A stretch of 64,000 bases of DNA from Bacteroidales bacterium (GCA_024763075.1 JANTGF010000008.1:15531-79530); one strand, 5' to 3'; counted from the stretch's first letter, positions 27,272 through 46,092 are shown. The notes: generated by a model not told the origin, from the sequence alone. Program-made: numbers and translations.

Positions 27272-27284
27272 AAAATTTACGATA

Positions 27285-29162
27285 ATGTCATTAAATCCAT
27301 TAAACCTCAGAAATAACCTGATCATGGCCACAGTAAAGCTGGGCTATACAACAGGTGACGGTAAAATACACGATAAACATCTGGCATTCTATAAGCCCCG
27401 GAGCAGGCATGTTGGAGCACTTACTCCGGAACCCTTATACCTGGACAAAGGCTTGAGGGAACTTCCCACACAGCTTGGTGTGGACAGTGATGATAAAATT
27501 CCCGGACTAAAAAAACTCACGGATCTTATTCACTCTAATGGTGCAAAAGCCATCGCCAACCTGAGCCATCCTGGCCGAATGGCTAACCCAAAAATTCCCG
27601 GAAATTATCATATCAGTTCCTCTGCCAAAGCATGTGAAAACGGTGGAGCTACTCCAAAAAAAATGGAAGCTGAGGACTTCAAACAGGTACTTGATCTGTT
27701 TTCTTCTGCTGCCCGAAGATGCAAAGAAGCCGGTTTTGATATCATCGAACTTCAATTGGGACACGGATACCTGGCTGCACAGTTTCTCTCGCCTTCTGTA
27801 AATGACAGAGATGATGAATATGGTGGCAGCTTCGAAAACCGTATTAAATTCCCGCTGGAGATTCTGGATGCTGTTAAAAGTGCAACAGATCTTCCGGTGA
27901 TTGCAAGGATAAGTGGTGATGAAATGATCCCGGATGGATTTCACCCAGAGGAAATGATTCGATTTGCAGGAATCCTGAAAGAACGTGGGGTCAGTGCCAT
28001 ACATGTTACTGCAGGAACAGTTTGTTCCACTCCACCCTGGTTCTTCCAGCACATGTTCATACCAAAAGGTAAAACATGGGAATTGGGAGGGAAAATTAAG
28101 TCAGCAGTAGATATTCCCGTAATTTTCGTCGGAAAAATTCATTCAAAACAAGACATAGAAAAACTTCAGAACGAATATCAGGCAGATTATGTAGCTTTTG
28201 GAAGAGCTCTGGTAGCTGATCCTGATTTTGCCGGAAAGGTTTTGAACCATGTCCCTGGATTGATCCGGCCCTGTATGGCCTGTGCCGAAGGTTGCCTGGG
28301 AGGAGTAAGAGCAGGAAAAGGGCTGGGTTGCGTTGTAAACCCGCTGGCAGGTCATGAAGAAGAAGAAATACACTCGGCAAGCAAAATAAAAAATATTGCA
28401 ATCGTTGGTGGTGGTTTAGCCGGGATGCAGGCAGCTCTAACGCTAACCCAAAGAGGTCATAAGGTTACAATGTATGAAAAAGAAGAGCTTGGCGGACAGT
28501 ATAATCTGGCGCACCTTCCTCCTCTAAAAGACTCATTAAGGGAAATTGTTGATTATTATAAACAGGAAATTTCAGATAACCATATCTCCGTAAATTATAA
28601 AGAAGCGGGTGAGGAAGACCTGCTCTCCGGCAAGTATAATGAAGTAGTGCTGGCTTCCGGTGCTGTCCCTGCCATTCCTCCTATAAAAGGCCTGAAAAAA
28701 TATTTCTGGACAGAGTTCCTGCATGATCAACACCTTCCGGTCGGCAAAAAGGTATTGATCATTGGAGGTGGATTGATCGGTATCGAACTGGCAAGTAAAT
28801 TGACCGACAAGGAAAATGAAGTCATTATTGTTGAAATGCTGGAAGAAGTAGCCAGAGGTATGGAAGCCATTGAAAAGGCCATGACATTGAAGAAGCTTCA
28901 GTCCAAACAGGTAAAAATTTTCAAAAACACAAGAGTCGCTGAAATACTTAATGGTGATACAGCTGTTCTTTTAGGTCCTGATCAAACATTTGAGATAAAA
29001 GACATTGATCATTTTGTAATGGCCACCGGAATGCGTGCCTATCATCCACTTTCGGAAAAGCTGGAAGGGGAAATACCCTATCATTTAGTTGGGGATGCCA
29101 TAAAACCGGACAAAGCCCAGACAGCCATCCGGAGTGCCTTTGAACTGGCAAACAGGATCTGA
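27285..29162 (+). CDS. Old-yellow-enzyme / 2,4-dienoyl-CoA reductase-like NADH:flavin oxidoreductase with C-terminal FAD/NAD(P)-binding domain
   Basis: OYE TIM-barrel motifs (GFDIIELQLGHGYL..QFLSP..N.R.DEYGGS.ENR), Fe-S cysteine cluster RPCMACAEGC, Rossmann IAIVGGGLAGM and LIIGGGLIG. Start set to ATG 27285 (MSLNPLNL); the ORF-track start at 27219 overlaps the upstream gene. Confidence 0.85.
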   Translation: MSLNPLNLRNNLIMATVKLGYTTGDGKIHDKHLAFYKPRSRHVGALTPEPLYLDKGLRELPTQLGVDSDDKIPGLKKLTDLIHSNGAKAIANLSHPGRMANPKIPGNYHISSSAKACENGGATPKKMEAEDFKQVLDLFSSAARRCKEAGFDIIELQLGHGYLAAQFLSPSVNDRDDEYGGSFENRIKFPLEILDAVKSATDLPVIARISGDEMIPDGFHPEEMIRFAGILKERGVSAIHVTAGTVCSTPPWFFQHMFIPKGKTWELGGKIKSAVDIPVIFVGKIHSKQDIEKLQNEYQADYVAFGRALVADPDFAGKVLNHVPGLIRPCMACAEGCLGGVRAGKGLGCVVNPLAGHEEEEIHSASKIKNIAIVGGGLAGMQAALTLTQRGHKVTMYEKEELGGQYNLAHLPPLKDSLREIVDYYKQEISDNHISVNYKEAGEEDLLSGKYNEVVLASGAVPAIPPIKGLKKYFWTEFLHDQHLPVGKKVLIIGGGLIGIELASKLTDKENEVIIVEMLEEVARGMEAIEKAMTLKKLQSKQVKIFKNTRVAEILNGDTAVLLGPDQTFEIKDIDHFVMATGMRAYHPLSEKLEGEIPYHLVGDAIKPDKAQTAIRSAFELANRI

Positions 29163-29392
29163 AAAAATTTGCATGAAAATACCATATCAGTCAATGATAT
29201 AGTCTCAGCTTATTCCTGCTCCGGGCATTTCGGATTATTTGGGATTGGATTACGATTGTGCCTTAAACCCTATGTTATTCAAATGGATAGAATAGGTATG
29301 GGCAGCGTTTTTTTGTATTTTTCCAATCCGCCTATTAAATGTTCCTGTTATGTATTAATTTTTCTACTTTTGCATATTAATTTATTTGGAAC

Positions 29393-30187
29393 ATGCGATA
29401 TCTCAATAAAATAGTATGGATTGCAGGAGCTTCCTCGGGTATAGGGGAAAGTCTGGTTTATGCTTTTATCCAGGAAGGAGCAACAGTTATTGCATCTGCC
29501 CCTTTTGAGGATCAGTTAAATCAGGTAAGAGAAAAATGTGGCGATAAGATGGAATATTGTAAGGTATTGCCTCTGGATATGCTTGAACCAGACAATTTCC
29601 AGGAACTAGCTGAGAAAGTGATCCGGGAAAACAAAAGAATTGACATACTCATTCATGTGGCAGGTATCAGCCAGCGGGCATTGGTTCAGGAAACTGAAAT
29701 GGAAACTGTCCGGAAAATTATGGAGATCAACTTTTTTGGAGCAGTTGCACTCGCAAAAGCTGTTCTACCCATAATGCTATCACAGGGTGGTGGCCAGATT
29801 GCAGCGGTTAGCAGCATCGTAGGAAAATTTGGGTTTCCGCTCCGGTCTGTCTATTCAGCCTCCAAACATGCAATGCATGGTTTTTTCGAATCCCTTCAGG
29901 CCGAAAATCTTAATAATAGCATTGATGTAACGATGATCATCCCCGGCAGGGTAAATACAGAAATTTCATTCAATGCTGTTACAGGTGATGGAAAAACATG
30001 GGGCAAAAAGGACCCGGGCCAGGAAGGGGGCATTTCTACTGAAAAAGCATCCAGAATTATTTTGAATGCTCTTTATAAGAAGAAAAAGGAAGTATTGGTT
30101 GGAGGCCGGGAGCTTGCAATGGTTTACATAAAAAGGTTTTTCCCGGGTTTATTCTGGAAAATGGTAAACAACATTAAACCAACCTGA
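29393..30187 (+). CDS. Short-chain dehydrogenase/reductase (SDR)
   Basis: IAGASSGIG cofactor motif and YSASKHA catalytic YxxxK. Confidence 0.85.
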   Translation: MRYLNKIVWIAGASSGIGESLVYAFIQEGATVIASAPFEDQLNQVREKCGDKMEYCKVLPLDMLEPDNFQELAEKVIRENKRIDILIHVAGISQRALVQETEMETVRKIMEINFFGAVALAKAVLPIMLSQGGGQIAAVSSIVGKFGFPLRSVYSASKHAMHGFFESLQAENLNNSIDVTMIIPGRVNTEISFNAVTGDGKTWGKKDPGQEGGISTEKASRIILNALYKKKKEVLVGGRELAMVYIKRFFPGLFWKMVNNIKPT

Positions 30188-30234
30188 AAAATTTGAAAAA
30201 TAATTTTTAATTTTGATAAAAAACAAATTAAAAA

Positions 30235-31314
30235 ATGAAAAAGGTAGTAATTAGTGGAATCCAACAGATTGGCATAGGAGTGGCTGATCTGAGGGATGCC
30301 TGGAAATGGTACAGAGAAAATTTCGGCGTAAATATCCGGGTGTTTGAGGAGAAAGCTTCAGCTGGCCTTATGAAAAACTATACCGGAGGAGAAGTCCGAA
30401 GCCGACATGCAGCAATGGCTCTGAATCTTCGGGGAGGAGGTGGAGGATTTGAAATCTGGCAATATACCGACCGGGTACCTAAATCACCTAAATTTGATAT
30501 TAACCTGGGTGATCTTGGCATTTTTGCCGTAAAAATTAAGAGTAAGAATGTTTCTGCTGCATGGGAAAAATTCAGGGAAAGAAAATTGGATCTCCTTACG
30601 GATGTTAGAAAAGATCCGGACGGAGTGGAACATTTCTTCATAAAAGATCCTTTTGAAAATGTTTTTCAGGTTGTTAGCAGTAAATCTTTTTTCGGAAAGC
30701 GAAAATCATTGACAGGTGCAGCTTATGGAGCCGTAATTGGGGTAACAGATATGGATAAGGCCATGAAGTTCTACAATAATGTTTTGGGTTATGATCACAT
30801 CATATATAATGAAACCGGCCGGTTTGATGATTTTAAGAGTGTACCCGGAGGAGATAAAGAGATGAGGAGGGTTTTGTTGCACCATAGCGCTGAAAGGAAA
30901 GGGGGATTCAGCCGTATTTTTGGTGAAAGTTATATTGAATTGGTTTCTGTCCCATCCGAAAAACCCAGAAGAATATTTAAGGACAGGTACTGGGGGGACC
31001 TCGGTTTTATTCATCTTTGCTATGATATTCGTGGAATGAAAGAAATGAAAGAGCTTTGTGAGGGCGAAGGGCATCCTTTTACTGTAGATAGTTTAAGTGG
31101 TCATGATCAGGATGTTTTTGATATGGGAGAAGCTGCCGGTCATTTTGCCTATGTTGAAGATCCGGACGGAACACTAATTGAATTCGTTGAAGCACATAAA
31201 CTTCCAATCGTAAAAAAGTTGGGTATTAGCCTGAACATGATGAAAAGAGATCCAGAAAAAGCATTACCCAACTGGCTTATTAAGGCAATGAGATTTAATA
31301 AGGTAAGGAAATAA
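30235..31314 (+). CDS. VOC (glyoxalase/bleomycin-resistance/dioxygenase) superfamily protein, two-module
   Basis: Two copies of the beta-alpha-beta-beta-beta module pattern (QIGIGVADL...W.WY; VIGVTDMDKAM.FY) ending in DPDGTLIEF. Confidence 0.65.
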   Translation: MKKVVISGIQQIGIGVADLRDAWKWYRENFGVNIRVFEEKASAGLMKNYTGGEVRSRHAAMALNLRGGGGGFEIWQYTDRVPKSPKFDINLGDLGIFAVKIKSKNVSAAWEKFRERKLDLLTDVRKDPDGVEHFFIKDPFENVFQVVSSKSFFGKRKSLTGAAYGAVIGVTDMDKAMKFYNNVLGYDHIIYNETGRFDDFKSVPGGDKEMRRVLLHHSAERKGGFSRIFGESYIELVSVPSEKPRRIFKDRYWGDLGFIHLCYDIRGMKEMKELCEGEGHPFTVDSLSGHDQDVFDMGEAAGHFAYVEDPDGTLIEFVEAHKLPIVKKLGISLNMMKRDPEKALPNWLIKAMRFNKVRK

Positions 31315-31326
31315 AAAGAAAAAAGA

Positions 31327-31965
31327 TCAGAAGGTAAAGCCAATCCGCATGATTGGGTTCGAATAAATGGAGTTTAAACTTTCATTCAGGTTCCACAGAA
31401 TAGAAAAATATATTCCTGCTCTCGGACCCAATGGTTGTCTGATACCTCCTCCAACCAGGAAATTGTTTAACCAGAATCTCTCCTGATCCGGATAAATACC
31501 GGCATAGTCGAAATATTGACTCTCTAGACTCAATCCTTCATATTCTCCATAGATAAAAATACTCATACTGATTCCTGCGGGAATGAGTTTGTTCAGGTCC
31601 TGTATTACATTAAACTGCGAAAAAACCTTAAAACCATAAATGTGCGTATCATAATTATAATACCTGTCACTGTAATACTGATACTTGATCCCGGTTCCGA
31701 ATGAAAATCTGGGTGTCAGTTGATACCCTACAATAGGCGCCAGTTCTATGTCCGTGACAGTACCAAAACGCATGGCAAAATATCCTCCAAAAAACAATTT
31801 CTGCCGTACGGGAGCCTTTCTGTATTTTTTAGGAGCTGTTAAGCTTTTCCCAACAGTATCCACACTTTCCAGGTAATCCGGCTGATTTTGAGAAAAACCA
31901 TTCAGACTTAAAGCAATAAAGAAAAAGGAAATTATAAAAAACTTAAACTTATAAATATATTTCAT
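31327..31965 (-). CDS. Small outer-membrane beta-barrel protein, unknown function
   Basis: Signal peptide, alternating aromatic/glycine beta-strand pattern, C-terminal ...RIGFTF. Confidence 0.5.
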   Translation of the reverse strand: MKYIYKFKFFIISFFFIALSLNGFSQNQPDYLESVDTVGKSLTAPKKYRKAPVRQKLFFGGYFAMRFGTVTDIELAPIVGYQLTPRFSFGTGIKYQYYSDRYYNYDTHIYGFKVFSQFNVIQDLNKLIPAGISMSIFIYGEYEGLSLESQYFDYAGIYPDQERFWLNNFLVGGGIRQPLGPRAGIYFSILWNLNESLNSIYSNPIMRIGFTF

Positions 31966-32173
31966 TTTTATCTTTTATGGAAGTTTCATAAAAGCACTAT
32001 GCAATAACCATGCAAAAGTAATATAAAATCATGAAATTTTTATAAATAGCATAAATTGCCTGCCAATTTGAATTGAAATTTTCCATTAAAATACTAACTT
32101 CATGCCTTGTAAAAAGACAAAAAAACAAAAAAGTGAATCAATTAAGCCAAAATTACAGCTTATTTTATTTATT

Positions 32174-32884
32174 ATGAATATATTTATAACAGGAGCAAGC
32201 CAGGGGATCGGCAGGGAACTAGTAAAAAAACTTGCCAAAGAAAACCACCGTATAATCGCTCTGTCCAGGAATGAAGAAAAACTGGAATCTCTGGTCAGGG
32301 ATTGTAAGGCTTTAAATAAAGTCTCAAAGCTTGAAACCATTCCTTTTGATCTTAGAGATTTAAAATCAAATACTCATTTCATAGTTCAAAGAACAGAGGA
32401 AACTTTTTCAAATCTTGATATTCTGATCAACAATGCCGGTTTCCTTACAACCGAACCCTTCTCTCAAATTTCTGATGAAATCCTGTCGAAAACAATGGAA
32501 ATCAATTTTTTTGCTCCTTTCATTTTAATTCAGCAACTACTGCCATTATTGAGAAAAAGCAAAAATGCGCACATTGTAAATATCGGAAGCATGGGAGGAA
32601 TAAACGGAAGTTCAAAATTCTCCGGTTTATCTGCTTACAGCTCATCCAAAGGGGCACTGGCAATTCTTTCTGAATGTCTGGCAGAAGAACTAGAAGAAGA
32701 TCAAATAAGCTGTAATTACCTGGCCCTGGGAGCTGTGCAAACGGAAATGTTAAGTAATGCTTTTCCCGGTTATGAAGCTCCTTTAAATCCGAAAGAAATG
32801 GCCGAATTTATAGCTGATTTTGCTTTAAATGGAAACCGGTATTTTAACGGTAAAATCCTTCCGGTTTCGGTAAGTACTCCATAA
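32174..32884 (+). CDS. Short-chain dehydrogenase/reductase (SDR)
   Basis: MNIFITGASQGIG, NNAG, YSSSKGA. Start set to ATG 32174 instead of the extended 32102. Confidence 0.85.
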   Translation: MNIFITGASQGIGRELVKKLAKENHRIIALSRNEEKLESLVRDCKALNKVSKLETIPFDLRDLKSNTHFIVQRTEETFSNLDILINNAGFLTTEPFSQISDEILSKTMEINFFAPFILIQQLLPLLRKSKNAHIVNIGSMGGINGSSKFSGLSAYSSSKGALAILSECLAEELEEDQISCNYLALGAVQTEMLSNAFPGYEAPLNPKEMAEFIADFALNGNRYFNGKILPVSVSTP

Positions 32885-33203: not shown

Positions 33204-35879
33204 ATGAGTAAAAAAAATGCGATTGTTTTGTTTTTTTTAGTTTTTGGATTGATCAGTATTAACCTAAAAGCTCAGAGTCTTCACAAGTTCAAGTATGAAG
33301 GAGGTGAAATTCATCCACTTACCAATATAGTCAGGACGGAACTCCAATTTAATGGCTATACAAATTACTGGCATGATACTTACACAAACTGGTATCGATA
33401 CGGAAATCTTTTCAAGATGGCGATACCTGACGTGAGTAAAAGTATTTTACAAAGTAAGGTTGATGCTGCAGAAGATATGGGAGTTCCGGGATTATTAATG
33501 CAGGAAGGTTTCCTTTCCGGACTGCTATCCGATAATTATAAAACTCTTAATCAGCCTGGTATTGATGAAGTGGAACAGATTCTGAGCAAAGAGAATGTTC
33601 TTATTTATGTTAATTCAGACTCAGAACTGGGTAAAAAAGTAAATGCACAAATTCCAACTGATTTTGACTGGCCTGAAAAACTTGGAAGCCATCAATATGG
33701 TGCCATTGACCTGAAAAGAGCAGATGCATTTATTCTTGAAAACAATGAACGGAAAATATTCATTGTCAGCTCAGAAGACGGGAATACTCTTGAAAAAACC
33801 AAACAACTTATAAACAACACACTTGATGTGGTCAGCAAATACGATCTGCACAAGGGTTGGTTCGGGGCTTATACTTTGTTAAACAGTGTAACCTGTACAC
33901 AAGGTCACCCTCTTGAGGTTATTGGTACAGGAATGAATGAAGGATGCAGTTGGTTTGTATTTGAGGGATATATGGATTTTTTATCGAAAAATGAAATTGA
34001 GAACTGGGTAAGTGAAATAAATTCGCCGGTTGTTACAGACTTTGGAGCTACTAAAGTTTTTGGGTGCAAAGATTACGATGGGTTCCAGATTCAGCAAATG
34101 TACAATGAGCAGGACTGGCACAATTTTGCTAAAGAAAAAGGGGGATATATTTTCAGGCAAGTGATGGATACTGTTGCCGACAAATATAAGTATGACGGAT
34201 ATTTTGCTAATGAAGGGAACAAGGAACAGATTGATAATGAGGATGTACCATTTATACTTAAAACAGGGAAACTGGATGATAATGCCACTTCAAGCATGGT
34301 TCTATTCCTTGAGAAAGGAAAAGAATTAACACGTAAATCAATGTGGGAAGCAATTCTTAACCGCCATGAAGTGGGTGTCCTGGCTCTGGGGAAAATGATG
34401 GGGCCGGCAAAGTTCCGAAATGCACTGGAATTATTGCTTCTCGATAGAGTTTATCTTGAAAATTACTTTAATGATATTATTAGTATTGAGGCAAAAACCG
34501 ATGATTACGATTTGCAGATAGCAGTTACAAATAATTCTCAAAAATCAGTTTCAGGCAAATTGGAATTAACTCTTCCAAAATCATTAAAAGTAAAAAGCAG
34601 CTCTCCGGTGAGTATTCAACTAACAGCCGAAAGCACTAAAACTCTTCATTTCAATTTACAGCCAACTGTAGATGCAATGGGAAATACAAACCCGATTGCT
34701 ATTCATTACATTTGGAACGGAAAGGAAAAAAGTACACTTTCAATGCTTGATTTACCACCTGTAATTTCCGTTTACCGCTTGCTTTACGGTCATGTTCCGG
34801 AAGTTAAATTTCCGGTTTCTATTCATAATTACACGACTAAAACGTCATTCCCGGTAAAAGTTGAAGTTATCAATGATCATAACAAAACTGTTTATAAAGA
34901 AACACAAACCTGCAATACCAAACAGGGGACATATAATGAAATGGAGTTTGACCTTAATGTTAAGGCAGGCAATTACAATGTAAAAATTTCTGCTCTTGGT
35001 ACGGAATACCTTTCTCAACTCGGAGTTGGCAAAGCAAAAGGGGCTCCTTACGTTTATGAAACGGACTTAAATAACGACGGCATAAACGAGTACCGCATGG
35101 AAAACGACAGTGTGCAAATTACCTTACTGACCACAGGTGCCAGGGTTATTGAATATATTGTTAAAAGCCGTAATGACAATGTTCTTTTTAAGTTATGGCC
35201 TAAAAAAGCAATTGACGACCGACGACCATTCCGTAAAAAAGGATATTATCCCTATGGTGGATTTGAGGATTTTCTGGGTCAGGCAAGCATGGAAACTCAC
35301 CAGGTTTACCATGCAAAAATTATAAAGGAAAAAGGAGATTATGTACGGGTTAAAATGTGGACTGACTATTTTGGAAATCGTCTGGAGAAAACATTCACCC
35401 TTTATGGAAACTCACCATTGCTGGAAGTTCGTTTTGCTCTCAATTTTAAAAACCCTGAAGCCAACATGATTGGACCACAGCCAATTTTGGAACTTGGCAA
35501 AAAACACTGGACCGAAGATAAATTTATTATCCCTGCAAAAGGTGGTTTACATGAGGCACACATGAATCCGGACAGGTATTACGGTGAAGCCTTTCTGAAT
35601 ATAACAGAGGGATGGAACGCCGGATACGACACAAAAGAAGACATTACTTTTGTGGGAGCTTTCCCGGTTGACCAACCTTTGTTTCTTCACATGTGGCAAA
35701 ACCATCCAAGCAATCACGATGCACATCATTATTATGCTGAGTTTCAGCCCTGGGTTCCGATTATTCAAAAAAATACAATGTATTTTACCTATTACTTATG
35801 GGGAGCCGGCGGTCCATGGGAAAACGGTGTTGCCAGGTTAAGAGAGATGAATTTAATTACAATACGTAAAAAGAGATAG
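33204..35879 (+). CDS. Large secreted protein, unrecognised family (PUL paralogue A): N-terminal ~430 aa unknown domain, two beta-sandwich modules, C-terminal mutarotase-like domain
   Basis: 891 aa with an SPI-type signal peptide (no lipobox Cys). Middle region SVSGKLELTLPKSLKV...TKTLHFNLQP looks like a NEW3/CARDB-type beta-sandwich. The C-terminal END..V.ITLLTTGARVIEYIVK pattern resembles aldose-epimerase/DUF4380-like domains. No GH/PL catalytic motif recognised. Confidence 0.8.
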   Translation: MSKKNAIVLFFLVFGLISINLKAQSLHKFKYEGGEIHPLTNIVRTELQFNGYTNYWHDTYTNWYRYGNLFKMAIPDVSKSILQSKVDAAEDMGVPGLLMQEGFLSGLLSDNYKTLNQPGIDEVEQILSKENVLIYVNSDSELGKKVNAQIPTDFDWPEKLGSHQYGAIDLKRADAFILENNERKIFIVSSEDGNTLEKTKQLINNTLDVVSKYDLHKGWFGAYTLLNSVTCTQGHPLEVIGTGMNEGCSWFVFEGYMDFLSKNEIENWVSEINSPVVTDFGATKVFGCKDYDGFQIQQMYNEQDWHNFAKEKGGYIFRQVMDTVADKYKYDGYFANEGNKEQIDNEDVPFILKTGKLDDNATSSMVLFLEKGKELTRKSMWEAILNRHEVGVLALGKMMGPAKFRNALELLLLDRVYLENYFNDIISIEAKTDDYDLQIAVTNNSQKSVSGKLELTLPKSLKVKSSSPVSIQLTAESTKTLHFNLQPTVDAMGNTNPIAIHYIWNGKEKSTLSMLDLPPVISVYRLLYGHVPEVKFPVSIHNYTTKTSFPVKVEVINDHNKTVYKETQTCNTKQGTYNEMEFDLNVKAGNYNVKISALGTEYLSQLGVGKAKGAPYVYETDLNNDGINEYRMENDSVQITLLTTGARVIEYIVKSRNDNVLFKLWPKKAIDDRRPFRKKGYYPYGGFEDFLGQASMETHQVYHAKIIKEKGDYVRVKMWTDYFGNRLEKTFTLYGNSPLLEVRFALNFKNPEANMIGPQPILELGKKHWTEDKFIIPAKGGLHEAHMNPDRYYGEAFLNITEGWNAGYDTKEDITFVGAFPVDQPLFLHMWQNHPSNHDAHHYYAEFQPWVPIIQKNTMYFTYYLWGAGGPWENGVARLREMNLITIRKKR

Positions 35880-35887
35880 CTAAGCTG

Positions 35888-38560
35888 ATGAGAATAAAAG
35901 TTTTATCAGGTATTCTAGTTTTGTTTTTATTACTAACTGCAATGAATACCCTGGCTCAAAAACTTGATGATTTTAAATACACCGGAAACAAAAATTCATC
36001 AGGAACTTACCCTGTAAAATCCGAATTTCTGTTTAACGGTTATACCAATTACTGGCACGATGATTACACCAACTGGTTCCGTTACGGAAACCTGTTTAAA
36101 ATTGCTACCGGTAATGTTGAAAAAAACATTCTGCAAAGTAAAGTGGATGTTGCTGAAGATATGGGATTACCCGGATTGTTGATGCAGGAGAGTTTTGTTG
36201 ATAATTTATTTTCATCAGCTTATAAAGTATTGAAACAACCTGATAAAACAGATTTGGAGAATTCGGCCAGCAATGGAAACGTACTCGTTTTCATTGACCC
36301 TAAGACTGATCTGGGTAAAGAATTAATTGCAGAATATTCTAAATATAGTGATTGGCCATATAAACTAAAAAGTCATCAATATGGTACCCCGGACTTGAAA
36401 AGAATTAATGCTTTTATCCTTCATAATGGGGATAGTAAAATATTTGTTGTTAGTTCCACAGATAGCAAAAGTCTGGATAAGTTTAAAAATCTAATCAATA
36501 ATACTAAAAATATTATTGAAAAATATGATTTTCATAGGGGTTGGTTTGGTGTAAAATCTATGCTTAAAAGTGTAACAATCGCAGATGGACATCCACTGGA
36601 ATTAATAGGCAAAGGGATGAATGAAGGAAACTCATGGTTTGTTTTTAGTGGTTACATGGATATTTATGCGAAAAACGAATTAACCAAATGGATGAAAGAA
36701 GTAAACCTTCCCATTGTTACCGATGTGGGCTTTCCTCCGGTTTTTGGATGCAAAGACTACGATGGATTTCAAGATCGTCTTATGACATCCAGAGAGTTAT
36801 GGGCTGACTTTGCTGGCAAGAAAAATGGATATATATTTCGAAAAGTTTCAGATTCTTCAAATGACTTTTATCGTTATGATGGATATTTCGCAACTGAAGG
36901 GAACAAGGAACAAATAGATAATGATAAAATACCATTTGTATTGGAAACAGGGTACCTGAAAGATAACCTGACATCATGCATGGTTTTATTCCTTAAAAAA
37001 GGCGAACCTTTAAACCGGGAATCTATGTGGCAGGCAATTTTCGACCGCCGGGAAGTAGGTGTTTTGGAAAAAGGTAAAATGATGGGACCGGTAAATTATC
37101 GCAATGCATTGGAAATGCTGATTCTCGATAGAGTTTTTCTTGAAAACTATTTCAACGACAAGCTAAATATTGAAGCAAAAACCGATGGGTATGACTTGCA
37201 GGTTAGTTTAACAAATTATTCTAATCATTCAGTATCCGGCATTCTTGAATTAACTCTCCCAAAATCATTAAAAGTGAAAGAGAGCACATCTCTTTCCATA
37301 AAACTACCATCCGGGAGTTTGCTAACAGAACATTTTACCATTCAGCCCGATATTGATGCAATGGCTGGTACCAATCCGGTCGCTGTTCATTATAAATGGA
37401 ACGGCAAACAAAAAAGTACGCTTGCAATGCTCGACATGCCACCTGCAATTTCGGTTCATCGTCTTTTATACGGACATGCACCCAGAGTAAGTTATCCGGT
37501 TACTATCCATAATTTCACAAACAAATCATCTTTCCCGGTAGACATTCAGGTTATTGATGCCGTGGATGAAACTAAAATTATTTATAAAACCAGTCAAACC
37601 TGTAGTACTAAAACAGGCACTTTTAAAGACATGTTATTCACACTGAAGGTTCCCGCCGGAAACTACAAGGTAAAAGTTTCAGCCCTTGGCACCAATTACA
37701 AATCTCAATTAGGTATTGGCAAAGCCAAAGGAACTCCAACAGTCAAAGAAATTGATTTAAACAGTGATGGTATTAACGAGTATCAATTGGAAAATGACAG
37801 TGTACAGGTTACACTATTGACAACCGGTGCAAGGATCATTGAATATATTGTTAAGAGCAGAAACGATAATGTATTATTCAAATTATGGCCAAAAAAAGTA
37901 ATTGACGACAAACGTCCTTTCAGGGAAAGAGGATTTTATCCTTATGGTGGATTTGAAGATTTTCTGGGTCAGGGAAGTATGGAAAACCATCAGGTTTATA
38001 ATGCAGAAATCGTTAAATCAAACAGGGATTATGTGAGAGTGAGAATGTGGACAGATTATTTCGGTAACAAACTGGAGAAAACTTTTACGCTTTACGGAAA
38101 TTCTCCATTGCTGGAAATACGGTATGCTTTGACCTTTAAAAATCCCGAAGCAAATATTATAGGACCTCAACCTATGCTTTCTCTTGGTGAAAGGCACTGG
38201 ACAGAAGATATATTTACTATTCCGGAAATGGATGGAATACACGAATACAGAATGAAACCTCATAGATATGGTATGATATTTCAGTTAAAAGAAGGATGGA
38301 ATGCAGGTTACGATACGAAACAGGATATTTCTTATGTGGGTGCTTACCCGGTTGATCAGCCACTGTTTTTACATATGTTTCTGAATGAACCGGGGAATCA
38401 TGATTCACATTATTTTTATGGCGAATTTCAGCCCTGGGTGCCTATAATTCTTAAAAGCACTTTGTATTTTACATATTACATGTGGGGAACAGGAGGAACC
38501 TGGGAAAAGGGTGTAAAAGCATTAAGACGAAAGAATCTTATAACCACAAGACAAAAATAA
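35888..38560 (+). CDS. Large secreted protein, unrecognised family (PUL paralogue B)
   Basis: 890 aa, colinear with 33204-35879 along its whole length (e.g. FNGYTNYWHD.YTNW.RYGNLFK, GKMMGP..(F/Y)RNALE, LWPKK.IDD.RPFR..G.YPYGGFEDFLGQ). Starts 8 nt after paralogue A ends. Confidence 0.8.
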   Translation: MRIKVLSGILVLFLLLTAMNTLAQKLDDFKYTGNKNSSGTYPVKSEFLFNGYTNYWHDDYTNWFRYGNLFKIATGNVEKNILQSKVDVAEDMGLPGLLMQESFVDNLFSSAYKVLKQPDKTDLENSASNGNVLVFIDPKTDLGKELIAEYSKYSDWPYKLKSHQYGTPDLKRINAFILHNGDSKIFVVSSTDSKSLDKFKNLINNTKNIIEKYDFHRGWFGVKSMLKSVTIADGHPLELIGKGMNEGNSWFVFSGYMDIYAKNELTKWMKEVNLPIVTDVGFPPVFGCKDYDGFQDRLMTSRELWADFAGKKNGYIFRKVSDSSNDFYRYDGYFATEGNKEQIDNDKIPFVLETGYLKDNLTSCMVLFLKKGEPLNRESMWQAIFDRREVGVLEKGKMMGPVNYRNALEMLILDRVFLENYFNDKLNIEAKTDGYDLQVSLTNYSNHSVSGILELTLPKSLKVKESTSLSIKLPSGSLLTEHFTIQPDIDAMAGTNPVAVHYKWNGKQKSTLAMLDMPPAISVHRLLYGHAPRVSYPVTIHNFTNKSSFPVDIQVIDAVDETKIIYKTSQTCSTKTGTFKDMLFTLKVPAGNYKVKVSALGTNYKSQLGIGKAKGTPTVKEIDLNSDGINEYQLENDSVQVTLLTTGARIIEYIVKSRNDNVLFKLWPKKVIDDKRPFRERGFYPYGGFEDFLGQGSMENHQVYNAEIVKSNRDYVRVRMWTDYFGNKLEKTFTLYGNSPLLEIRYALTFKNPEANIIGPQPMLSLGERHWTEDIFTIPEMDGIHEYRMKPHRYGMIFQLKEGWNAGYDTKQDISYVGAYPVDQPLFLHMFLNEPGNHDSHYFYGEFQPWVPIILKSTLYFTYYMWGTGGTWEKGVKALRRKNLITTRQK

Positions 38561-38606
38561 TTCAGAACATAATTCTTATTTACAAATCTTTAAATTTATC
38601 CTTATT

Positions 38607-40427
38607 ATGAAAAAGCATTCATTTTTCCTGGCAAGCATTTTTCTACTGGTGTTTTCTTCTTCATTGGTTTTTGCAAAAGGCAGCAAAACCAAAGAACTGA
38701 CAGTTCATAAATTTGAACTGGCTTACCCCTGCCCTGCCATACCCTTTTATCATTTTATTGCTGAACTGGAGTTGCCACAGGCTTCTATTATCGAAGTGGA
38801 AACTGCTGTAAATGGTCAGCTTTTGCGGTTTACCGATCTGCATAAGGAAAATGAAATTACCGATATGAGCAGACCTGCTTTAAGCCACCGGCCACCCTCG
38901 GGATATGGCTTGTCTCAGGATGGAACACTTTATAAAAACCCTCATATTGTAGGGTGGTTCAAATGGGAACCGGATGAAAATTATAAAGTGACCATAAAAG
39001 TCAGGGTTAAGAAAAATATTCATGCCTCAAACGAAGATACTTTTTTAACAACTACAAAAACTTTAACGGCTCCCTCCGGTACTCCGGTCTTTGATAAGGA
39101 ATGGAAGAACTACAAATCAATCGTTTTATCAGAAACAGCCGGACTGGACAGAAAATCAGAACCGGTAGAGGTTTTGCTTCCTTTCTACCCGGATGAAGCC
39201 CAGCATCTAAAACGTGAGATCAGAGTGGTTTCGGTTGATCCGGAAACTCATGTATTAACAGAAGTACCCAGCCAGGTATACAATATTATGAAATACATGA
39301 AAGAGGATGATCTTGATCCGGATGCGAACGGAAATCCCACCCGGGAAATTCCTTTCTGGATGCCAACGGTTACTGCACGTGTTGCATTTCTTGCTGATGT
39401 TCCGGCAAACACAAGCAAGGTTTTTCTGGTTTATTATAATAATGAAAATGCCCTTGCCAAAATGTACGAAACCGATCTCAGAGTACAAGGAGAAGCACCG
39501 GGTTTAAGAATTGACAACAACAAGTATTCGATTGTATTGCACCCCAACTCCGGTCACCTGGATCAGATCACATTGAAAACCAAACCACAGGCACCATTGT
39601 TCCACAGAATGGAAACAAACGGGGCTATCCATTGGAATCCGGGCGTTTATGTTCCTCCCCGGCCATGGACCCATACCGCTGACTGGAAACCACCTGAAAA
39701 TGTAAAATTTATGGCCGGTCCGGTTATTTCTACTGCTGAGATGTGGGGAAATCTAAGGGAACTTCCGGAAGTAGATGCTTCTGTGCGCTATGAGTTTTTC
39801 CCTGGACTGCCGTATTTTCTCAGTTCAACAAGCATGAGAATTAATAAAAGAGTGGATTGCATTGCATTAAGAAACGGCGAAATTGTTTTCAAACGGGAAT
39901 TGATGACCCATGCTGCATGGTATGACGCCATTTCCGATAGTATTATCGTATATAATGTAGCCGAAATGCCTGACCTTGCAGACCTTTTCCTGCAGGCAGA
40001 TGTTCCATGGATTACTTTTTATAACGAAGAAACCGGAATTGGTTTTTGTGGCATTCAGTTGAATTATTCCAATGCAGGACTTGAATCCAGAGCACGGTTG
40101 CTTAATCCATATATGTATATCACAGCTGGTCCTTGGATCTATTGGGCCCGTGCCTTGTCATTAAGTTTTCTGGCTTCAAATATGCAACAGGTAATACCCG
40201 CCCTTGAAGGAAATTTCTTTGCCGAAAAATGGGCCTATCTTACTTATGAGACAGATAAGGGGGATAAACCATATAAACCGGTCTTTTATTGGCAAAAACG
40301 CTTAAAAAACCCTCTGCGAATACGTTTGGTTGAGGAGGTCGATGAAAGAGTATCACGAACTGTGAATGAAATCTTTATTGATGAGGGGAAAAGCGGTTGG
40401 GAAAACCGGGAGACCAGTAAACATTAA
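38607..40427 (+). CDS. Secreted protein, unrecognised family (possibly DUF4861-like core)
   Basis: 606 aa with an SPI signal peptide. The segment RKSEPVEVLLPF...IRVVSVDPETHVLTEVPSQVY...SKVFLVYYN resembles the DUF4861 pattern found in Bacteroidota glycan loci. Tentative. Confidence 0.7.
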   Translation: MKKHSFFLASIFLLVFSSSLVFAKGSKTKELTVHKFELAYPCPAIPFYHFIAELELPQASIIEVETAVNGQLLRFTDLHKENEITDMSRPALSHRPPSGYGLSQDGTLYKNPHIVGWFKWEPDENYKVTIKVRVKKNIHASNEDTFLTTTKTLTAPSGTPVFDKEWKNYKSIVLSETAGLDRKSEPVEVLLPFYPDEAQHLKREIRVVSVDPETHVLTEVPSQVYNIMKYMKEDDLDPDANGNPTREIPFWMPTVTARVAFLADVPANTSKVFLVYYNNENALAKMYETDLRVQGEAPGLRIDNNKYSIVLHPNSGHLDQITLKTKPQAPLFHRMETNGAIHWNPGVYVPPRPWTHTADWKPPENVKFMAGPVISTAEMWGNLRELPEVDASVRYEFFPGLPYFLSSTSMRINKRVDCIALRNGEIVFKRELMTHAAWYDAISDSIIVYNVAEMPDLADLFLQADVPWITFYNEETGIGFCGIQLNYSNAGLESRARLLNPYMYITAGPWIYWARALSLSFLASNMQQVIPALEGNFFAEKWAYLTYETDKGDKPYKPVFYWQKRLKNPLRIRLVEEVDERVSRTVNEIFIDEGKSGWENRETSKH

Positions 40428-40645
40428 TAAACTCTACGTGTTTAGATCCTTTTCTGATAATTGGTTTTGTATTTTACAATTATCCGGTAAGATTACTTTG
40501 TGAGGTAAAATATTGTATTTACACAGAGTGATTTTAATGTATTTCATGGAAGATGGTAAATATAACTGATTGTATGGCTATTTGTACTTCAAAGGATCAA
40601 TGACTGATTGCCTGAGCTTTTGATGGAATAAAACCTGATGAAAAA

Positions 40646-40679
40646 GAAATGCCGCTTAACGAAAACTAAGCGGCATTTC
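40646..40679. terminator. Bidirectional intrinsic terminator hairpin between convergent genes
   Basis: 13-bp perfect stem gaaatgccgctta (40646-40658) / taagcggcatttc (40667-40679) with loop acgaaaac, flanked by A-runs upstream and on the opposite strand. Lies between the stop at 40427 (+) and the susD stop at 40707 (-). Confidence 0.7.
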
Positions 40680-40706
40680 AAATAATTGTAAGCTTATTTT
40701 AAGCTC

Positions 40707-42272
40707 TTAAAAGTTAGGACCACCTGTATCCCACCACAAATGAGTACCAATTTCGTCAGGTCCTCCAAGTTTGGTAGTAGCATCAGCAACTCCATCCGGA
40801 TTGTTATTCCTTTCATTATTAATAAAAGGCATCCTTCTCAGGAAATCATCCATTGGAATAACACCCCAGTCGGCATTACTGTCGTTTTTGGTATTATAGG
40901 GTAATTTTGGATAACCAGTCCTGCGATGGTCAACCCAGGCTTCCAGCGAATTTGTAAAATTGTTGATCCATTTTTGAGTGATAATCTTTTCCAGTTTCCG
41001 TTCATCACTGTCAGCATCATCCCATGCAACAGTTATATCCGAACGACTGGTCCAGTTATTCCTATCATCTTTTGGATCTACATAGTCAAGAGGTGTACTT
41101 GTATTGTCGGCCAGATATGCATCCACACCACCTGCGCCCCAGTCAGCAAATGAAGCTTTTACTCCTTCTTCATAATTTGTTTTAGCATCACCTGCCCCGG
41201 CCCAGCCTCTTAAAGCAGCTTCAGCTTTCAGAAGAGAGACTTCTGAATAGGTAAAAAATCTTCTGGACGTAACAGACTTAAACCCCTCGCTTACAGTTGA
41301 ATAGGTTAATCTTTGGTCTTTTGCATCGAGGAAAGCACCACTGTGAACTCCCTTATATGGCCAATCAGGATGATCGGGATAAAGTGTATTGTCAGCAGCA
41401 GGTTCAAAGTAACTGGCAACCCTGTTATCTTTCAATCCCACTAAAAACGATTCCATTGCTGCTCCCATACGGGTATCACCCCATTCGAAACAGATTACGT
41501 TCATAGGTAATTTTGCCCCATAAAGCGAAACATTAAAGTTTTCGCTATTTGAAGAAATTAATCCACCAGGATCACTTAAAGCTTTTTCACCCTGGGTTTT
41601 TGCAAGTGCCGGATCAACTTTAGAAAGCCTCATAGCCAATCTTAAACGCTCTGAGTTTATCAGTTTGATCCACATTTTAATGTCGCCATTATAGCTGGCA
41701 TCAAACTTTGTTAAACCTTTGTAATCTGTATTCGCAGCAAACACTGCCTGTATGGCATCAAGATCTGCAAAAAAGCTATTGTAAAGATCAGATTCTTTAT
41801 CATACATATTAGCCTGGCCCGATACACCATAGTTTGAATAGATAATAGGTCCGTGATAAGCCGTAAGTTTTGAAGCACCGAGTACCTGCATTAATTTTGC
41901 CCATGCAGAGAATACATCATAGCCTCCCTCATCAGCCTGTTTAATAACCTGTGCTGCAGGAGACATTACCCTACCGTAGATTCTGTTCCAAAAAACATTC
42001 CATCTGATGTAATATGTAGTGTTATTTACTCCACCAACAAAAGGTGTAGGAGTTCCCAAGTGACGTACCCAATTATCGTGACAAAGGTCTTCTTCAATCT
42101 GGTGACCAAATAAATTGCTCATCAATGACTGAAACGGAGAACCAAGCCTGTTAAAGTCCTGATCCAGTTCTTCGTCTGAAATTAGATAATGATTTCTGTT
42201 TGCATCCTCGAAATTTTTAGTACAAGACAAAAATCCGAGAGTGAATATTAAAACGAAAAATATTTTTTTCAT
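40707..42272 (-). CDS. susD: SusD/RagB-family nutrient-binding outer-membrane lipoprotein
   Basis: Lipobox LGFLSC, 521 aa, immediately downstream of susC (12-nt gap). TPR-like helical pattern with a C-terminal W...GGPNF-type ending. Confidence 0.85.
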   Translation of the reverse strand: MKKIFFVLIFTLGFLSCTKNFEDANRNHYLISDEELDQDFNRLGSPFQSLMSNLFGHQIEEDLCHDNWVRHLGTPTPFVGGVNNTTYYIRWNVFWNRIYGRVMSPAAQVIKQADEGGYDVFSAWAKLMQVLGASKLTAYHGPIIYSNYGVSGQANMYDKESDLYNSFFADLDAIQAVFAANTDYKGLTKFDASYNGDIKMWIKLINSERLRLAMRLSKVDPALAKTQGEKALSDPGGLISSNSENFNVSLYGAKLPMNVICFEWGDTRMGAAMESFLVGLKDNRVASYFEPAADNTLYPDHPDWPYKGVHSGAFLDAKDQRLTYSTVSEGFKSVTSRRFFTYSEVSLLKAEAALRGWAGAGDAKTNYEEGVKASFADWGAGGVDAYLADNTSTPLDYVDPKDDRNNWTSRSDITVAWDDADSDERKLEKIITQKWINNFTNSLEAWVDHRRTGYPKLPYNTKNDSNADWGVIPMDDFLRRMPFINNERNNNPDGVADATTKLGGPDEIGTHLWWDTGGPNF

Positions 42273-42284
42273 AATTAATCAATT

Positions 42285-45200
42285 TTAGAATGTTACTTTT
42301 ATATTAAAACCATAAGTCCTCGTTGCCGGTAAGTTGAAGTTGTCGAGAGACTGAGAACTCATTGTGGTATTCATTGCTAACTCCGGATCGTATGGCGCTT
42401 TCTTGTAAAATAGAAATAGATTCTGTCCAACAAGAGAAACGGATAGTCCACCAATTTTCTTAACATTAAAATCGTAGGCAATGGATAACTGGCTTAACCT
42501 TATATTGGTTCTGTCATAAACGTAAGGTTCAATAATACCGTTTCTACCTCCGGTACCACCTCCTTCTGCATATAAATCAAAAGCAGAAATCTGGGTAACA
42601 GGAGTTGTTCCCTGAATCGCGTTGATTTCAACATATCCTTTATCCCTTCCTTCACCACTTCTTTTACTAACTCCCCATCCGTCTAACATAGATTCTGTCT
42701 GGCTGACGGCTATACCTCCAAATTTTCCTGAAATAAGAAGACTAATATTAATACGGCCAACCTGAATGTTGTTGTTCCATCCGAGGATCCAGTTCGGTTC
42801 AAGATTTCCAAGATATTCCCGTTTTTGAGTTTTCAATGGCCTGCCGCTGTTCTCATCAAGTATAATCTGACCAGCATCATTTTTTCTGAATTTATAGCCA
42901 TACATATCCCCATAGGAACCTCCTGCTTCAAGGTAGGTCCGATATCCTTCCGAACTACCCATTTGAATTTGACGTTCAGGATTATCCGGATCCAATTCAA
43001 TTATTTCATTGTTATTTTTAGAAAAGTTAAATGCAGTTTTCCAGGATACGGAAGTGCTCTGTACCGGTATTGCATCCAGAGTTATCTCAACTCCTTTGTT
43101 TACAATTTTACCAACGTTAATATTCTTGGTTTGATACAAACCCTGTTCTTCAGGTGGTAAACTTACTGTAAGAAACTGATTGGTACTAACATTGTTATAA
43201 TAGGTAAAATCAAAACCAAGTCTTCCCTTAAATAGTTTAAACTCAAGACCAAGCTCATTACTTGTGATAAGCTCCGGCTTAAGATCGGTCCAGGGTTGCC
43301 TGGTGTTTCTATTGATACCACCTAAAGATCCCGATATAGAGTGATCAGAACGTATTGCATTCCATGGCACTTCTTTTGCTGCCTGGGCACTTGAGCCCCG
43401 AATTTTCAGAAATGGAATAAACTCGGGCAAATTAAATACATTGCTTAAAATAGCCACAAGACCTACTGAAGGATAGAAATACGAAGGACCATCTTCTGTA
43501 CCTATAAGGGTTGATGACCAGTCGTTACGTCCCGAAAGATCAACAAAAAACATTTCATTATATCCTAAATTTACACTACCAAAAACCGACTGTGTAATAG
43601 TTTCCCCACCATATTCACTAATCACGACATTTGTAGGATAATTCTGGGTTGAAAAAACATTAGGATAAAGCAAGTTGTTGGTTCCATTGTTGCCTCCCAT
43701 TCCATTCCAACTATGCTTACTATAACTTGAACCCACAAATGCTGTAAGATCTAACTTACCAAAAGTATTATTGTACTTTAATAAAGCATCAGCATAGAGC
43801 TTGGAGTCAGTTCTGTTAGAGAATACATACCTTCCGTTTTGGGATACATTGGTAACGTTTGACCCTGCATTATCCTTTTCGTTAAAGTTAAATCCAACAT
43901 AATCATATGTTCCCCTGGCCATAAAAGATAAATTATCGGTAATATCGTAACTTGCAGATACGTTGGCAATCATTCTTTTAATTTGCTCTTCCTTAGGCTG
44001 CATATTGACTATCCAGTACGGATTACTCAGGTGATGATCAACAACATACACGTTTTGAAGGTACATATTCCTTGTTTCATCAAAATATTTGTAATTTTCC
44101 TTATAGTCCTGCCAGTCTCTTTCACGTGGAAAATTATATAAACCGGTCAAAGGATTAAGATAATAACCGGCAGCATTACGATTTTTCACTTTCTCAGTAG
44201 AAAGTATAACATTTGAACCCAATGTTAATTTATCGTTAAAAAGTTTGGTTGATTGCTTGAAGGTTAAGTTATTCTTTCCGTATGTGTTATTTGGAACAAT
44301 ACCCTTTGAGGAAGTATTGGCGTAAGAAAAATATGCTGTAGTTCTATTATTTCCACCGCTTACAGTAACACTATTAATCAAATTATTTCCGGTCTGGAAA
44401 AAATCTTTCATCATAGCCTCCGTGTATTTGGTTCCCCCTTTGGTATCCGACCAACTTTCCTTTGCTCCGTTTACTGCACCATAATCAAACTGCAACTCAG
44501 GATAAATAAGAACACTCTCAAATGTTGTTGTTGAGCTCAGGGATACCCTTGCTTTGCCTGCTTCTCCACTTTTGGTTGTAATTAGCACTACTCCGTTAGC
44601 GCCCTGACTACCGTAAAGAATGGATGCGTTTAATCCTTTCAAAACGTTAATGCTTTGAATATCATCCGGATTCAATTGCGATAGACCATCGCCCTGATCA
44701 GTTCCACCCCACATTCCGGGCTGTCCCCGCTTGATGTTCATTACGGGTATACCATCAATAACATATAGTGGCTCACTGGTACCGCCTAATGATTTGAATC
44801 CTCTTAAAAGAACCCTGGTAGAACCCCCGGCTCCCGATGAACTTTTCTTAATTTCGAGTCCAGCAGCTTTACCACTCAAGGCTTCCATAAAGTTGGCGCC
44901 TTTGGCTTTTAGTAACTCATCACCCGAAACCTGCTGAGATGCGTATGTCAGCGTTTTTTTATCGCGGGAAATACCCAGAGCAGTTACAACTACCTCATCA
45001 AGTTGCTTAGTGTCAACTTCCAGCACAGCATCATAAGTATCTGCACTTGTAATTTCCGTTTGTAGCGTTTTCATTCCAACAAACGAAAAATTCAAATACT
45101 TTGCATCAGGTGGTACAGATAAAACATATGTACCATCTACAGAAGTAATGGTACCGATAGTAGTACCTTCTACTGTTACGGTAACCCCGGGTAACGGTTG

Positions 45201-45308: not shown

Positions 45309-45747
45309 AAAAATTTAATTTAGGTGTTAAAAAAGGATAACAATTAGTAATTCAGGACGATTTTATAAAAAAAAAACACAAAAAACAATTTTTACTGATC
45401 AAAATTTCTAAAAGGAATGATCAGAATTTGTTGTAAATATTTAAAAAAAACATACATGTAATTAGCTATATACTTCAATAATAAGTTTTGTTATTTATTT
45501 CTAATCAAGATATTACACACATTTTACCGGGGCTTTAAGAAAAATACTTCCCTATTTTATGATGTGAGCTATATTTTTTCTAAAAATAAATATAATTTAG
45601 AATGATTCTAAATAAAAAAGAAGGAAGATATTGCATTTAAGCTGAAATAGCATTCGCTTTTAAACAACAATAAGGAATGATTTATAAAATATCACCTGTA
45701 CATCAGGTCATTAGCACAAAAGATATCACATGAAAAATCCATGACGG

Positions 45748-45933
45748 TCTAAAGACACACAGCTTAATGATTATATTCGCGGAAATCTAAAATTAAAAGA
45801 GATTACACATAAAGCAATGGAGAGTACAGGTGTTTACCGGAAACCCTTGTACAACATTATGAAAAAGGATTTAGAAAAAGTATATTTAGTTATGCTTCAA
45901 ACAAATACAAAATTACAAACAGATGAAATCTAA
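45748..45933 (+). pseudogene. Relic of an IS110-family transposase (N-terminal DEDD domain fragment)
   Basis: Translation SKDTQLNDYIRGNLKLKEITHKAMESTGVYRKPLYNIMKKDLEKVYLVMLQTNTKLQTDEI* resembles the IS110 core ...ITHVAMESTGVYWKPVYNIL...V.LVNA.H.KN.PGRKTD. There is an in-frame TGA immediately upstream and stops downstream, and no intact ORF. Confidence 0.5.
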
Positions 45934-46092
45934 AACCGGACCGAATTATAGAATCGCTCAATTTAGGTATGAAATAACAAAGCCTTAAACCTTCTTCTTC
46001 CTGGCTTGGTTTTTCCTTGATTCTTCAAATATTATATGGTAACTTGCAACAAATAAACTATCCCTTTTATAATTTACTCAAGTCGTTTTGTT

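Follow-up and report, generated by a model that had tools for sequence, protein, structure and literature searches.

An uncharacterised polysaccharide utilization locus module of environmental Bacteroidota with two unnamed, putatively carbohydrate-directed protein families

The DNA considered here is a stretch of 64,000 nucleotides (nt) from a Bacteroidales bacterium (GCA_024763075.1, JANTGF010000008.1:15531-79530), referred to in its whole length as the window, and our subject is a group of three open reading frames (ORFs), with the working names A, B and C, that lie opposite a SusC/SusD pair. This locus is a real, conserved and so far uncharacterised module of a polysaccharide utilization locus (PUL). 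Our preferred reading, to which we give a probability of about one half, is that A/B and C, together with orthologous SusC and SusD proteins, form a conserved and mobile import-and-processing unit of environmental Bacteroidota, and that A/B and C represent carbohydrate-directed periplasmic families built on a beta-supersandwich. The evidence for this comes from the recurrence of the genes and of their arrangement in other genomes, from the architecture predicted for their products and from the distribution of invariant residues within the A family.

Gene content and conservation of the module

Gene A (33204-35879, + strand) encodes 891 amino acids (aa) and gene B (35888-38560, +) encodes 890 aa. 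The two are paralogues of the same architecture (64% identity over 886 aa) that belong to one unnamed family, and the only DNA repeats returned by a repeat search of the region (70-75% identity) correspond to this paralogy. Gene C (38607-40427, +) encodes a 606-aa member of a second unnamed family. With gaps of 8 nt between A and B and 46 nt between B and C, these co-oriented ORFs amount to 2,387 aa in all; an earlier reading of this DNA from the sequence alone (the sequence-only reading) had put them at about 2,390 aa with the same gaps, and their exact location bears this out. The hydrophobic N-terminal signals of A, B and C end AQ/S, AQ/K and FA/K, respectively, and there is no lipobox cysteine in any of them, in agreement with the type-I signal peptides that had been proposed for all three. 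From these N-terminal sequences the three products are predicted to be periplasmic.

The three genes are real, far beyond chance, because their homologues make up 1,054 (A) and 956 (C) clusters at 90% identity, of which the named ones are either hypothetical or mis-named, and because C was present in 189 GTDB species in a scan of one genome per species. Nearly all of these carriers are Bacteroidota, among them Draconibacterium, Mariniphaga, Maribellus and other Prolixibacteraceae, Cyclobacteriaceae, Roseivirgaceae, Aureibaculum, Flaviramulus and Chitinophagaceae. The closest relative of the window is a Draconibacterium metagenome-assembled genome whose C is 87% identical.

The gene neighbourhood was compared by clustering all the ORFs of 86 fetched loci along with those of the window. 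In 75 of the 86 loci the gene immediately upstream of C is A, in the same orientation; among the remaining loci are truncated contigs and the four syntenic loci L074, L077, L079 and L081, where an aspartate kinase gene, and not A, directly precedes C. The number of tandem copies of A ranges from one to four, and in the 13 other loci with at least two full-length copies these paralogues are 54-70% identical to one another. In 14 loci the A-C genes adjoin a SusD gene (59-81% identity to that of the window) and a SusC gene (52-78%), which can be co-directional and upstream, divergent, or convergent as they are in the window. Such levels of identity indicate that the flanking pairs are orthologues of the window's SusC/SusD rather than generic members of those families, and the link between A-C and SusC/SusD is stronger than the sequence-only reading could know.

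In the window itself, the SusD-like lipoprotein gene (40707-42272, - strand; PF12741, 467 bits; lipobox LSC) and the gene for the SusC-like TonB-dependent transporter (42285-45308, -; Plug and CarboxypepD_reg domains) are both identified by Pfam and face the A-C genes, so the convergent arrangement originally described is correct. The spacer in which C and SusD converge is 279 nt long and contains a single hairpin (40646-40679, -) with a 15-bp stem, which follows SusD and resembles an intrinsic terminator. Its T-run is on the - strand only; on the + strand it is situated 219 nt past the stop codon of C and has no U-tract. A bidirectional terminator shared by both operons had been suggested: the one strong hairpin in the spacer is there, but its terminator-like T-run serves only the SusD side. 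An Rfam scan of the interval 26-51 kb found no RNA element.

The neighbours that recur around A-C in other loci are carbohydrate-related: a CBM9-like protein of 244 aa (24 loci, often immediately after C), a Gfo/Idh/MocA oxidoreductase with a twin-arginine translocation (TAT) signal (19 loci), a GH78 rhamnosidase (7 loci), a DUF4434 protein accompanied by a sugar transporter of the major facilitator superfamily (MFS; 5 loci) and, in the one locus of Aureibaculum algae, a LacI regulator. To these can be added an extracytoplasmic function (ECF) sigma factor in 16 loci, a FecR anti-sigma factor and a PF12831 FAD oxidoreductase in nine loci each, and a DUF5107-TPR protein in seven. The minimal loci have the compositions LacI-A-C-CBM9-like and SusC-SusD-A-C-DUF4434-MFS. 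There are also divergent A-like proteins without any C, one adjoining a sulfatase and another in a cluster of GH38, Gfo/Idh/MocA and GATase1-like genes; therefore A would appear to be functional alone, and in glycan contexts. On a Logan contig (ERR14790953; L092:739-10556) the divergent A-like protein P0349, which has no signal peptide, is encoded after a GH38 alpha-mannosidase, a Gfo/Idh/MocA protein and a GATase1_like protein, with a gene for an asparaginase_2 of the glycosylasparaginase type close by. This context hints at a mannose or N-glycan link for the wider A family.

The mobile elements near some of these loci and the identity of C across orders (63-90%) together suggest a horizontal spread of the module. 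In A. algae (CP040749.1; L001:8761-22669) the LacI-A-C-CBM9-like operon adjoins a mobilisable element with integrase, VapE, Toprim and relaxase genes, and transposases of the Y1 and IS66 types are found near the module in L004-L006. We have also compared the similarity of SusC/SusD with that of A-C, setting window positions 33204-45308 against loci L007, L008, L014, L039 and L054. The nearest counterparts of the window's SusC/SusD (72-81%) belong to Prolixibacteraceae loci in which C has an identity of only about 66%, and for its A and C the nearest relatives (C 79-87%) come from loci where no orthologous SusC/SusD was detected in the flanks that were fetched, a few of which are on short or truncated contigs. 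The transporter part and the A-C part of the module seem, on these identities, to have recombined.

Domain architecture and family assignment

The AlphaFold2 model of A, made from an alignment of 69 sequences (predicted local distance difference test [pLDDT] 79; predicted template modelling score [pTM] 0.79), contains three segments, for which we use the residue numbers of A here and below. The first is an alpha/beta N-terminal domain (the N-domain; residues 60-425; 33381-34478, +) of alternating beta and alpha elements, the second a pair of immunoglobulin (Ig)-like beta-sandwiches (residues 426-612, with the individual sandwiches at 426-516 and 526-608; 34479-35039, +) and the third a beta-supersandwich of the galactose-mutarotase type (residues 613-885, in the model 616-885; 35040-35858, +), where conservation is higher than anywhere else in the protein. 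This is the layout that had been proposed for A/B from sequence. In a Foldseek search of the PDB with full-length A, the matches were domains 4-5 of the GH2 beta-galactosidase LacZ, the MG domains of complement C3 and the P1 domain of YidC (E about 1e-9 to 1e-7, low global template modelling [TM] scores, probability 1.0 for the supersandwich); they reflect above all the Ig and supersandwich domains, not the N-domain. The N-domain is a closed sequence family. Its profile gave only 170 matches against 1.84 billion representatives, with no bridge to other families; those listed are either fragments or proteins, mostly about 820-960 aa long, that have the domain at their N-terminus. The most divergent A-like member, P0388, is an orphan in a set of 5.8 billion proteins.

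Nothing in Pfam or NCBIfam scans of A, B and C exceeded a family cut-off, and PDB sequence searches with single sequences and with profiles (A, C, the N-domain of A and its C-terminal domain) revealed no real relative; the sole match, to a juvenile-hormone methyltransferase, was judged spurious. Searches of the literature on DUF5107, PL26, ASPIC/SusD, new glycoside hydrolase (GH) families and Prolixibacteraceae PULs yielded no paper on either family. As judged against Pfam, NCBIfam and the PDB, the view that A/B and C belong to no described family, already that of the sequence-only reading, is thus supported.

The signals below threshold are nevertheless informative about the fold. A Pfam scan of the single protein A gave weak MG2, DUF3244 and Ig matches in residues 426-612. 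We also scanned each family as a whole (14 A-like members of 25-64% identity and 65 C members) at E<=10. One weak match alone recurs in the A family: PF09095, which models the C-terminal domain of 4-alpha-glucanotransferases of GH57. It occurs in nine of the 14 A-like members without ever passing the 22-bit cut-off (best E 0.015), and in B, the only member whose match is listed, it covers no more than profile positions 1-40. One A-like member weakly matches both DUF5107 and Glyco_hydro_38C (E 0.0077 for the latter). The catalytic domains of GH57 (PF03065) and GH38 (PF01074) matched none of the 14 A-like members, and neither PF01074 nor the helical bundle PF09261 matched in the scans of A or C. 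No hidden Markov model (HMM) match to aldose 1-epimerase (PF01263) or DUF4380 was obtained for the A family, and the DUF4380-type C-terminal domain once attributed to A is not confirmed. The fold class of this domain in Foldseek is that of the mutarotases, whose catalytic set is His/His/Asp/Glu, and R647, H699, D809, H829 and E846 are conserved there. The DUF4861-like core proposed for C is not confirmed either, PF16153 matching 0 of the 65 C members, among which no other family recurs either. Finally, there was no Pfam or NCBIfam match to sulfatases or to SGNH or alpha/beta-hydrolase esterases, and no conserved GxSxG or GDS in the family alignment. Motif readings of the N-domain as SGNH, alpha/beta-hydrolase or clan GH-A (NE, GxSxG, GDS) were rejected, the residues concerned being variable in divergent members.

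Protein C was modelled by AlphaFold2 (pLDDT 74) as an all-beta protein with two sandwiches followed by a supersandwich. Among its best Foldseek matches, the first are bacterial GH38 alpha-mannosidases, which align with it through their C-terminal half (E 7e-11, TM 0.38, some 500 columns), a likeness for which the Pfam scan of the C family gave no counterpart in sequence; LacZ and the PL26 exo-rhamnogalacturonan lyase (E 5e-9) follow, and the probability for the supersandwich is 1.0. The parallel with PL26 (PDB 5xq3/5xqg) extends over about 530-545 columns (E 5e-9 to 2e-7) and both are multi-domain all-beta proteins, but the TM-scores reach only 0.33-0.37, the identity is 8-10%, the lengths differ (about 900 aa versus 606 aa) and PDB sequence searches, including one by profile with the limit set at E<=10, gave no match that would place C in PL26.

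Constraint within the A family

To locate the constraint within A and B, both were aligned with twelve divergent representatives of the family, down to 25% identity, and the conservation was scored domain by domain. The N-domain (60-425) has 11 invariant columns, or 3.0 per 100 residues, which consist only of G, P, F, M and L, so that none is listed as polar/aromatic. The first Ig domain (426-520) has two (2.1 per 100), including N443, and the second (521-612) has none (0.0 per 100). The supersandwich (613-885), on the other hand, has 23 (8.4 per 100), and its twelve invariant polar/aromatic residues (D621, D625, E629, E633, N634, R647, K654, E688, H699, K729, W804 and D809) are, with N443 as the sole other, all that the folded domains contain. 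Six more supersandwich-region positions (H829, N833, N837, E846, Q848 and W850) are conserved in every member that covers them. When the most distant members are compared, the supersandwich retains 33-45% identity and the N-domain 21-31%. Because the invariant polar and aromatic residues cluster in the supersandwich and not in the N-domain, it is most likely the former that is the functional centre of A/B. The sequence-only reading had instead looked to the N-terminal domain of about 430 aa as the catalytic place, where the divergent family displays no invariant polar residue.

At its start the supersandwich has a loop, D-x-[DN]-x-D-G-x-x-E, that is of the FG-GAP/EF-hand type. This DxDxDG loop and FG-GAP proteins were matched by hhalign over 21 columns, which is consistent with a putative Ca2+ site at this position. 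That match and a weak one of 217 columns to DUF5107 were the best signals when the N-domain of A, its C-terminal domain and C were compared by hhalign with 71 recurrent neighbour clusters, none of the signals being significant; aligned directly with DUF5107, the C-terminal domain of A gave an E of 0.009 over 205 columns. The opening strands of the supersandwich have a pattern in common at the level of motifs in A (MENDxVxxTxLxxGGRVIEY...YPYGGFEEF), DUF5107 (MENDYIKLxIxPEIGGKIWG...SGGIELNFG) and C (IDNNKYSIVLHPNSGHLDQITLK...ETNGAIHWNPG). Low model confidence is common in loops that are ordered by a ligand or a partner. Two invariant loops, A 666-698 (YPYGGFEDF...H) and C 337-353 (HRMETNGAIHWNPG), are modelled with low confidence, which suggests that they may be sites of this kind.

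A possible function and its alternatives

If A/B and C do constitute an import-and-processing unit, SusD and SusC would capture and import an oligosaccharide or glycoconjugate, which the A-type proteins would then handle in the periplasm by means of their C-terminal mutarotase-type supersandwich. The predicted pocket of this domain would be lined by R647, K654, E688, H699, K729, W804, D809, H829 and E846 and would lie beside the DxNxDGxxE loop, whose sequence is reminiscent of Ca2+-binding motifs. A scaffold or an auxiliary binding platform could be provided by the alpha/beta N-domain together with the Ig pair, tandem A paralogues (here A and B) might widen or split the specificity, and C would act with A or directly after it, either as a second enzyme or as a subunit. 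A putative enzymatic function of A/B and C is plausible. We infer that the substrate is a carbohydrate and that catalysis is involved rather than binding; the loop would bind calcium, the active site would be in the pocket, and A may interact physically with C.

A bolder version of this proposal is that A and C found two new carbohydrate-active enzyme families in which a mutarotase-fold supersandwich of the GH57-C/GH38-C type is itself the catalytic module, perhaps that of an epimerase, of a lyase assisted by Ca2+ or of a hydrolase of an unusual kind. With one orthologous SusC/SusD pair they would make up a minimal, horizontally mobile four-gene system for an environmental glycan or glycoconjugate. 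We advance this tentatively and think it rather improbable as it stands.

Several points weigh against the import-and-processing unit. The homologous supersandwich of GH57, GH38 and GH2 enzymes is not their catalytic domain. No homology between A and C was detected by hhalign. Beyond SusC/SusD, the neighbouring genes vary greatly, those up to three positions away on each side falling into 179 distinct clusters, and they include nitrogen-related ones (asparaginase_2, M14 peptidase, creatininase-like, RidA, SelA-like and amidohydrolase, in 2-5 loci each), so that a glycopeptide or non-glycan substrate is possible. It is also possible that the proteins belong to a very recent CAZy family that has no Pfam, NCBIfam or PDB entry.

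The alternative that survives best is that A/B and C are non-catalytic periplasmic proteins for glycan binding or chaperoning, which would hold an oligosaccharide and present it to enzymes or sense it for regulation. Their recognisable domains, Ig and supersandwich, are indeed non-catalytic accessory modules in GH2, GH38, GH57 and YidC, the N-domain is devoid of invariant polar residues, and ECF sigma/anti-sigma pairs often flank the unit. However, twelve invariant charged, polar or aromatic residues in the supersandwich, along with the very high identity across orders, would be expected of an active site more than of a face that merely binds, and the minimal loci hold few or no other candidate enzymes. 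On balance we consider a purely binding role unlikely.

A still less likely arrangement would have the N-domain of A/B (about 370 aa) as the catalytic domain of a new family of glycoside hydrolases, carbohydrate esterases or polysaccharide lyases, perhaps a very divergent (beta/alpha)7 barrel of the GH57/GH38 type, with the supersandwich as its accessory. The succession of an alpha/beta domain and a PF09095-like supersandwich does mimic the domain order of GH57 and GH38, three of the Foldseek alignments with GH2 span about 810-835 columns with the alpha/beta region included, and a D/E at position 258 is conserved in the family alignment. Yet residues 60-425 contain no invariant polar, and hence no invariant acidic, residue; the 14 members searched at E<=10 are unmatched by PF03065 and PF01074; GH38 and GH57 are missing from the best 50 Foldseek matches of A, even though GH38 tops those of C; and the GH2 alignments have TM-scores of only 0.16-0.20.

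We regard as the most doubtful of these alternatives a module whose substrate is a nutrient other than a polysaccharide (such as a glycopeptide or N-glycan core, a conjugate of an amino sugar, or an aromatic glycoside) and which is not a classical carbohydrate-active enzyme (CAZyme) system: it would account for lineage-specific neighbours such as the glycosylasparaginase-type asparaginase_2, M14 carboxypeptidase, creatininase-like, RidA, SelA-like, amidohydrolase, URO-D-like and PhyH proteins, for the genes of old yellow enzyme (OYE), short-chain dehydrogenase/reductase (SDR) and glyoxalase-fold types upstream in the window and for a SusD of the poorly understood PF12741 type, but each of the lineage-specific neighbours is confined to 2-5 loci, the carbohydrate partners (CBM9-like, Gfo/Idh/MocA, GH78, DUF4434 with sugar MFS) are at least as frequent, and the redox genes stand 319 nt away from A with only their SDR family recurring near A-C.

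Comparison with known systems

By Foldseek, the fold of A 613-885 and of the core of C resembles that of the C-terminal domains of GH57 (PF09095) and GH38 (PF07748) and of DUF5107 (PF17128), which belong to the galactose-mutarotase-like supersandwich superfamily. With PF09095 the A family has in common the opening motif D-x-[DN]-x-D-G-x-x-E...E-N-D...G-G-R-x-x-E, a likeness that remains sub-threshold in the nine members concerned, and with DUF5107 (MENDYIKL..GGKIWG...SGGIE) there is a motif-level parallel, but no member of the A or C family reaches the threshold of any of these families. The catalytic N-terminal domains of GH57 and GH38, moreover, are absent from the A family, and the supersandwich, which is accessory in those enzymes, is in A the most conserved part. 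The top Foldseek match of A is to domains 4-5 of GH2 beta-galactosidase (LacZ, BT 3bga; E 1.6e-9). Here the order of Ig and then supersandwich is alike, but A has no TIM-barrel signature and no Pfam GH2 match.

As a whole the system is of a familiar kind, a PUL, and its conserved non-transport components are two uncharacterised families. Like canonical Bacteroidota PULs, the A-C module has a SusC/SusD adjacency conserved across genera, ECF sigma/FecR genes in several loci and products predicted to be periplasmic. Unlike them, its conserved partners are these two families and not recognised CAZymes. Canonical PULs also carry ECF-sigma/anti-sigma or other regulators, but no regulator for the locus (ECF sigma, FecR or hybrid two-component system) was found across the 64-kb window, which apart from SusC/SusD contains none of the recurrent A-C partners of other loci.

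Should A and C be enzymes, two families would be added to the CAZyme catalogue, the substrate of this PF12741-type SusC/SusD pair would be identified for some 190 Bacteroidota species from sediments, the sea and fresh water, and one "PUL of unknown substrate" gap in carbon-cycle annotation would be closed. Conserved hypothetical proteins are common in PULs, and if A and C are non-catalytic they would be an ordinary pair of these. In either case the conservation pattern provides a hypothesis that can be tested by mutation of about a dozen named supersandwich residues, and it redirects attention from the N-domain, the natural place to start a hunt for motifs.

Other genes of the window

On the far side of SusC there is a divergent cluster of known GH families (46093-50436, +) with, by Pfam, a DUF5060 plus apiosidase-like (GH140-type) protein, a DUF2961 (GH172-type) protein and a GH43 protein. 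These have no cluster in common with any of the 86 other A-C loci; the cluster adjoins A-C in this genome only and is outside the conserved module. It was the source from which arabinan, rhamnogalacturonan II (RG-II), fructan and apiose had been put forward in the sequence-only reading, and none of the four is supported; as inferences about the substrate we have rejected RG-II, arabinan and fructan since they rest on these non-recurrent genes. The argument that A, B and C occupy a position normally held by the enzymes that define specificity is not supported either, given the presence, beyond SusC, of these known GH families. Between SusC and the GH140-like gene is a divergent spacer of 784 nt (45309-46092), with one Bacteroidetes-type TAnnTTTG -7 motif at 45915 on the strand of SusC.

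Upstream of A, and separated from it by a 319-nt spacer, is a redox cluster (27219-32884) that encodes a flavoprotein of the OYE/2,4-dienoyl-CoA-reductase type, two SDRs and a double glyoxalase-fold protein; it also includes a 212-aa ORF that runs on the opposite strand and is unmatched in Pfam. One SDR family (cluster 12) is found near A-C in seven loci including the window, that is, in six others; no such recurrence is seen for the OYE-type and glyoxalase-fold genes.

Further away, the window has a 419-aa ORF without a Pfam family (8112-9371, +) and two adjacent paralogues of about 400 aa (14377-15591 and 16157-17365, -), in which a PagL (lipid A 3-O-deacylase) domain covers only residues of about 75-210 and the rest is without annotation. 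A second glycan-related cluster (56554-63940, -) encodes a GDPD phosphodiesterase, a GH27 alpha-galactosidase with He_PIG, a metallophosphoesterase, a CHB_HEX_C/PA14 protein and an 854-aa DUF4838 protein, homologues of which are also found near A-C in L070, L075 and L080.

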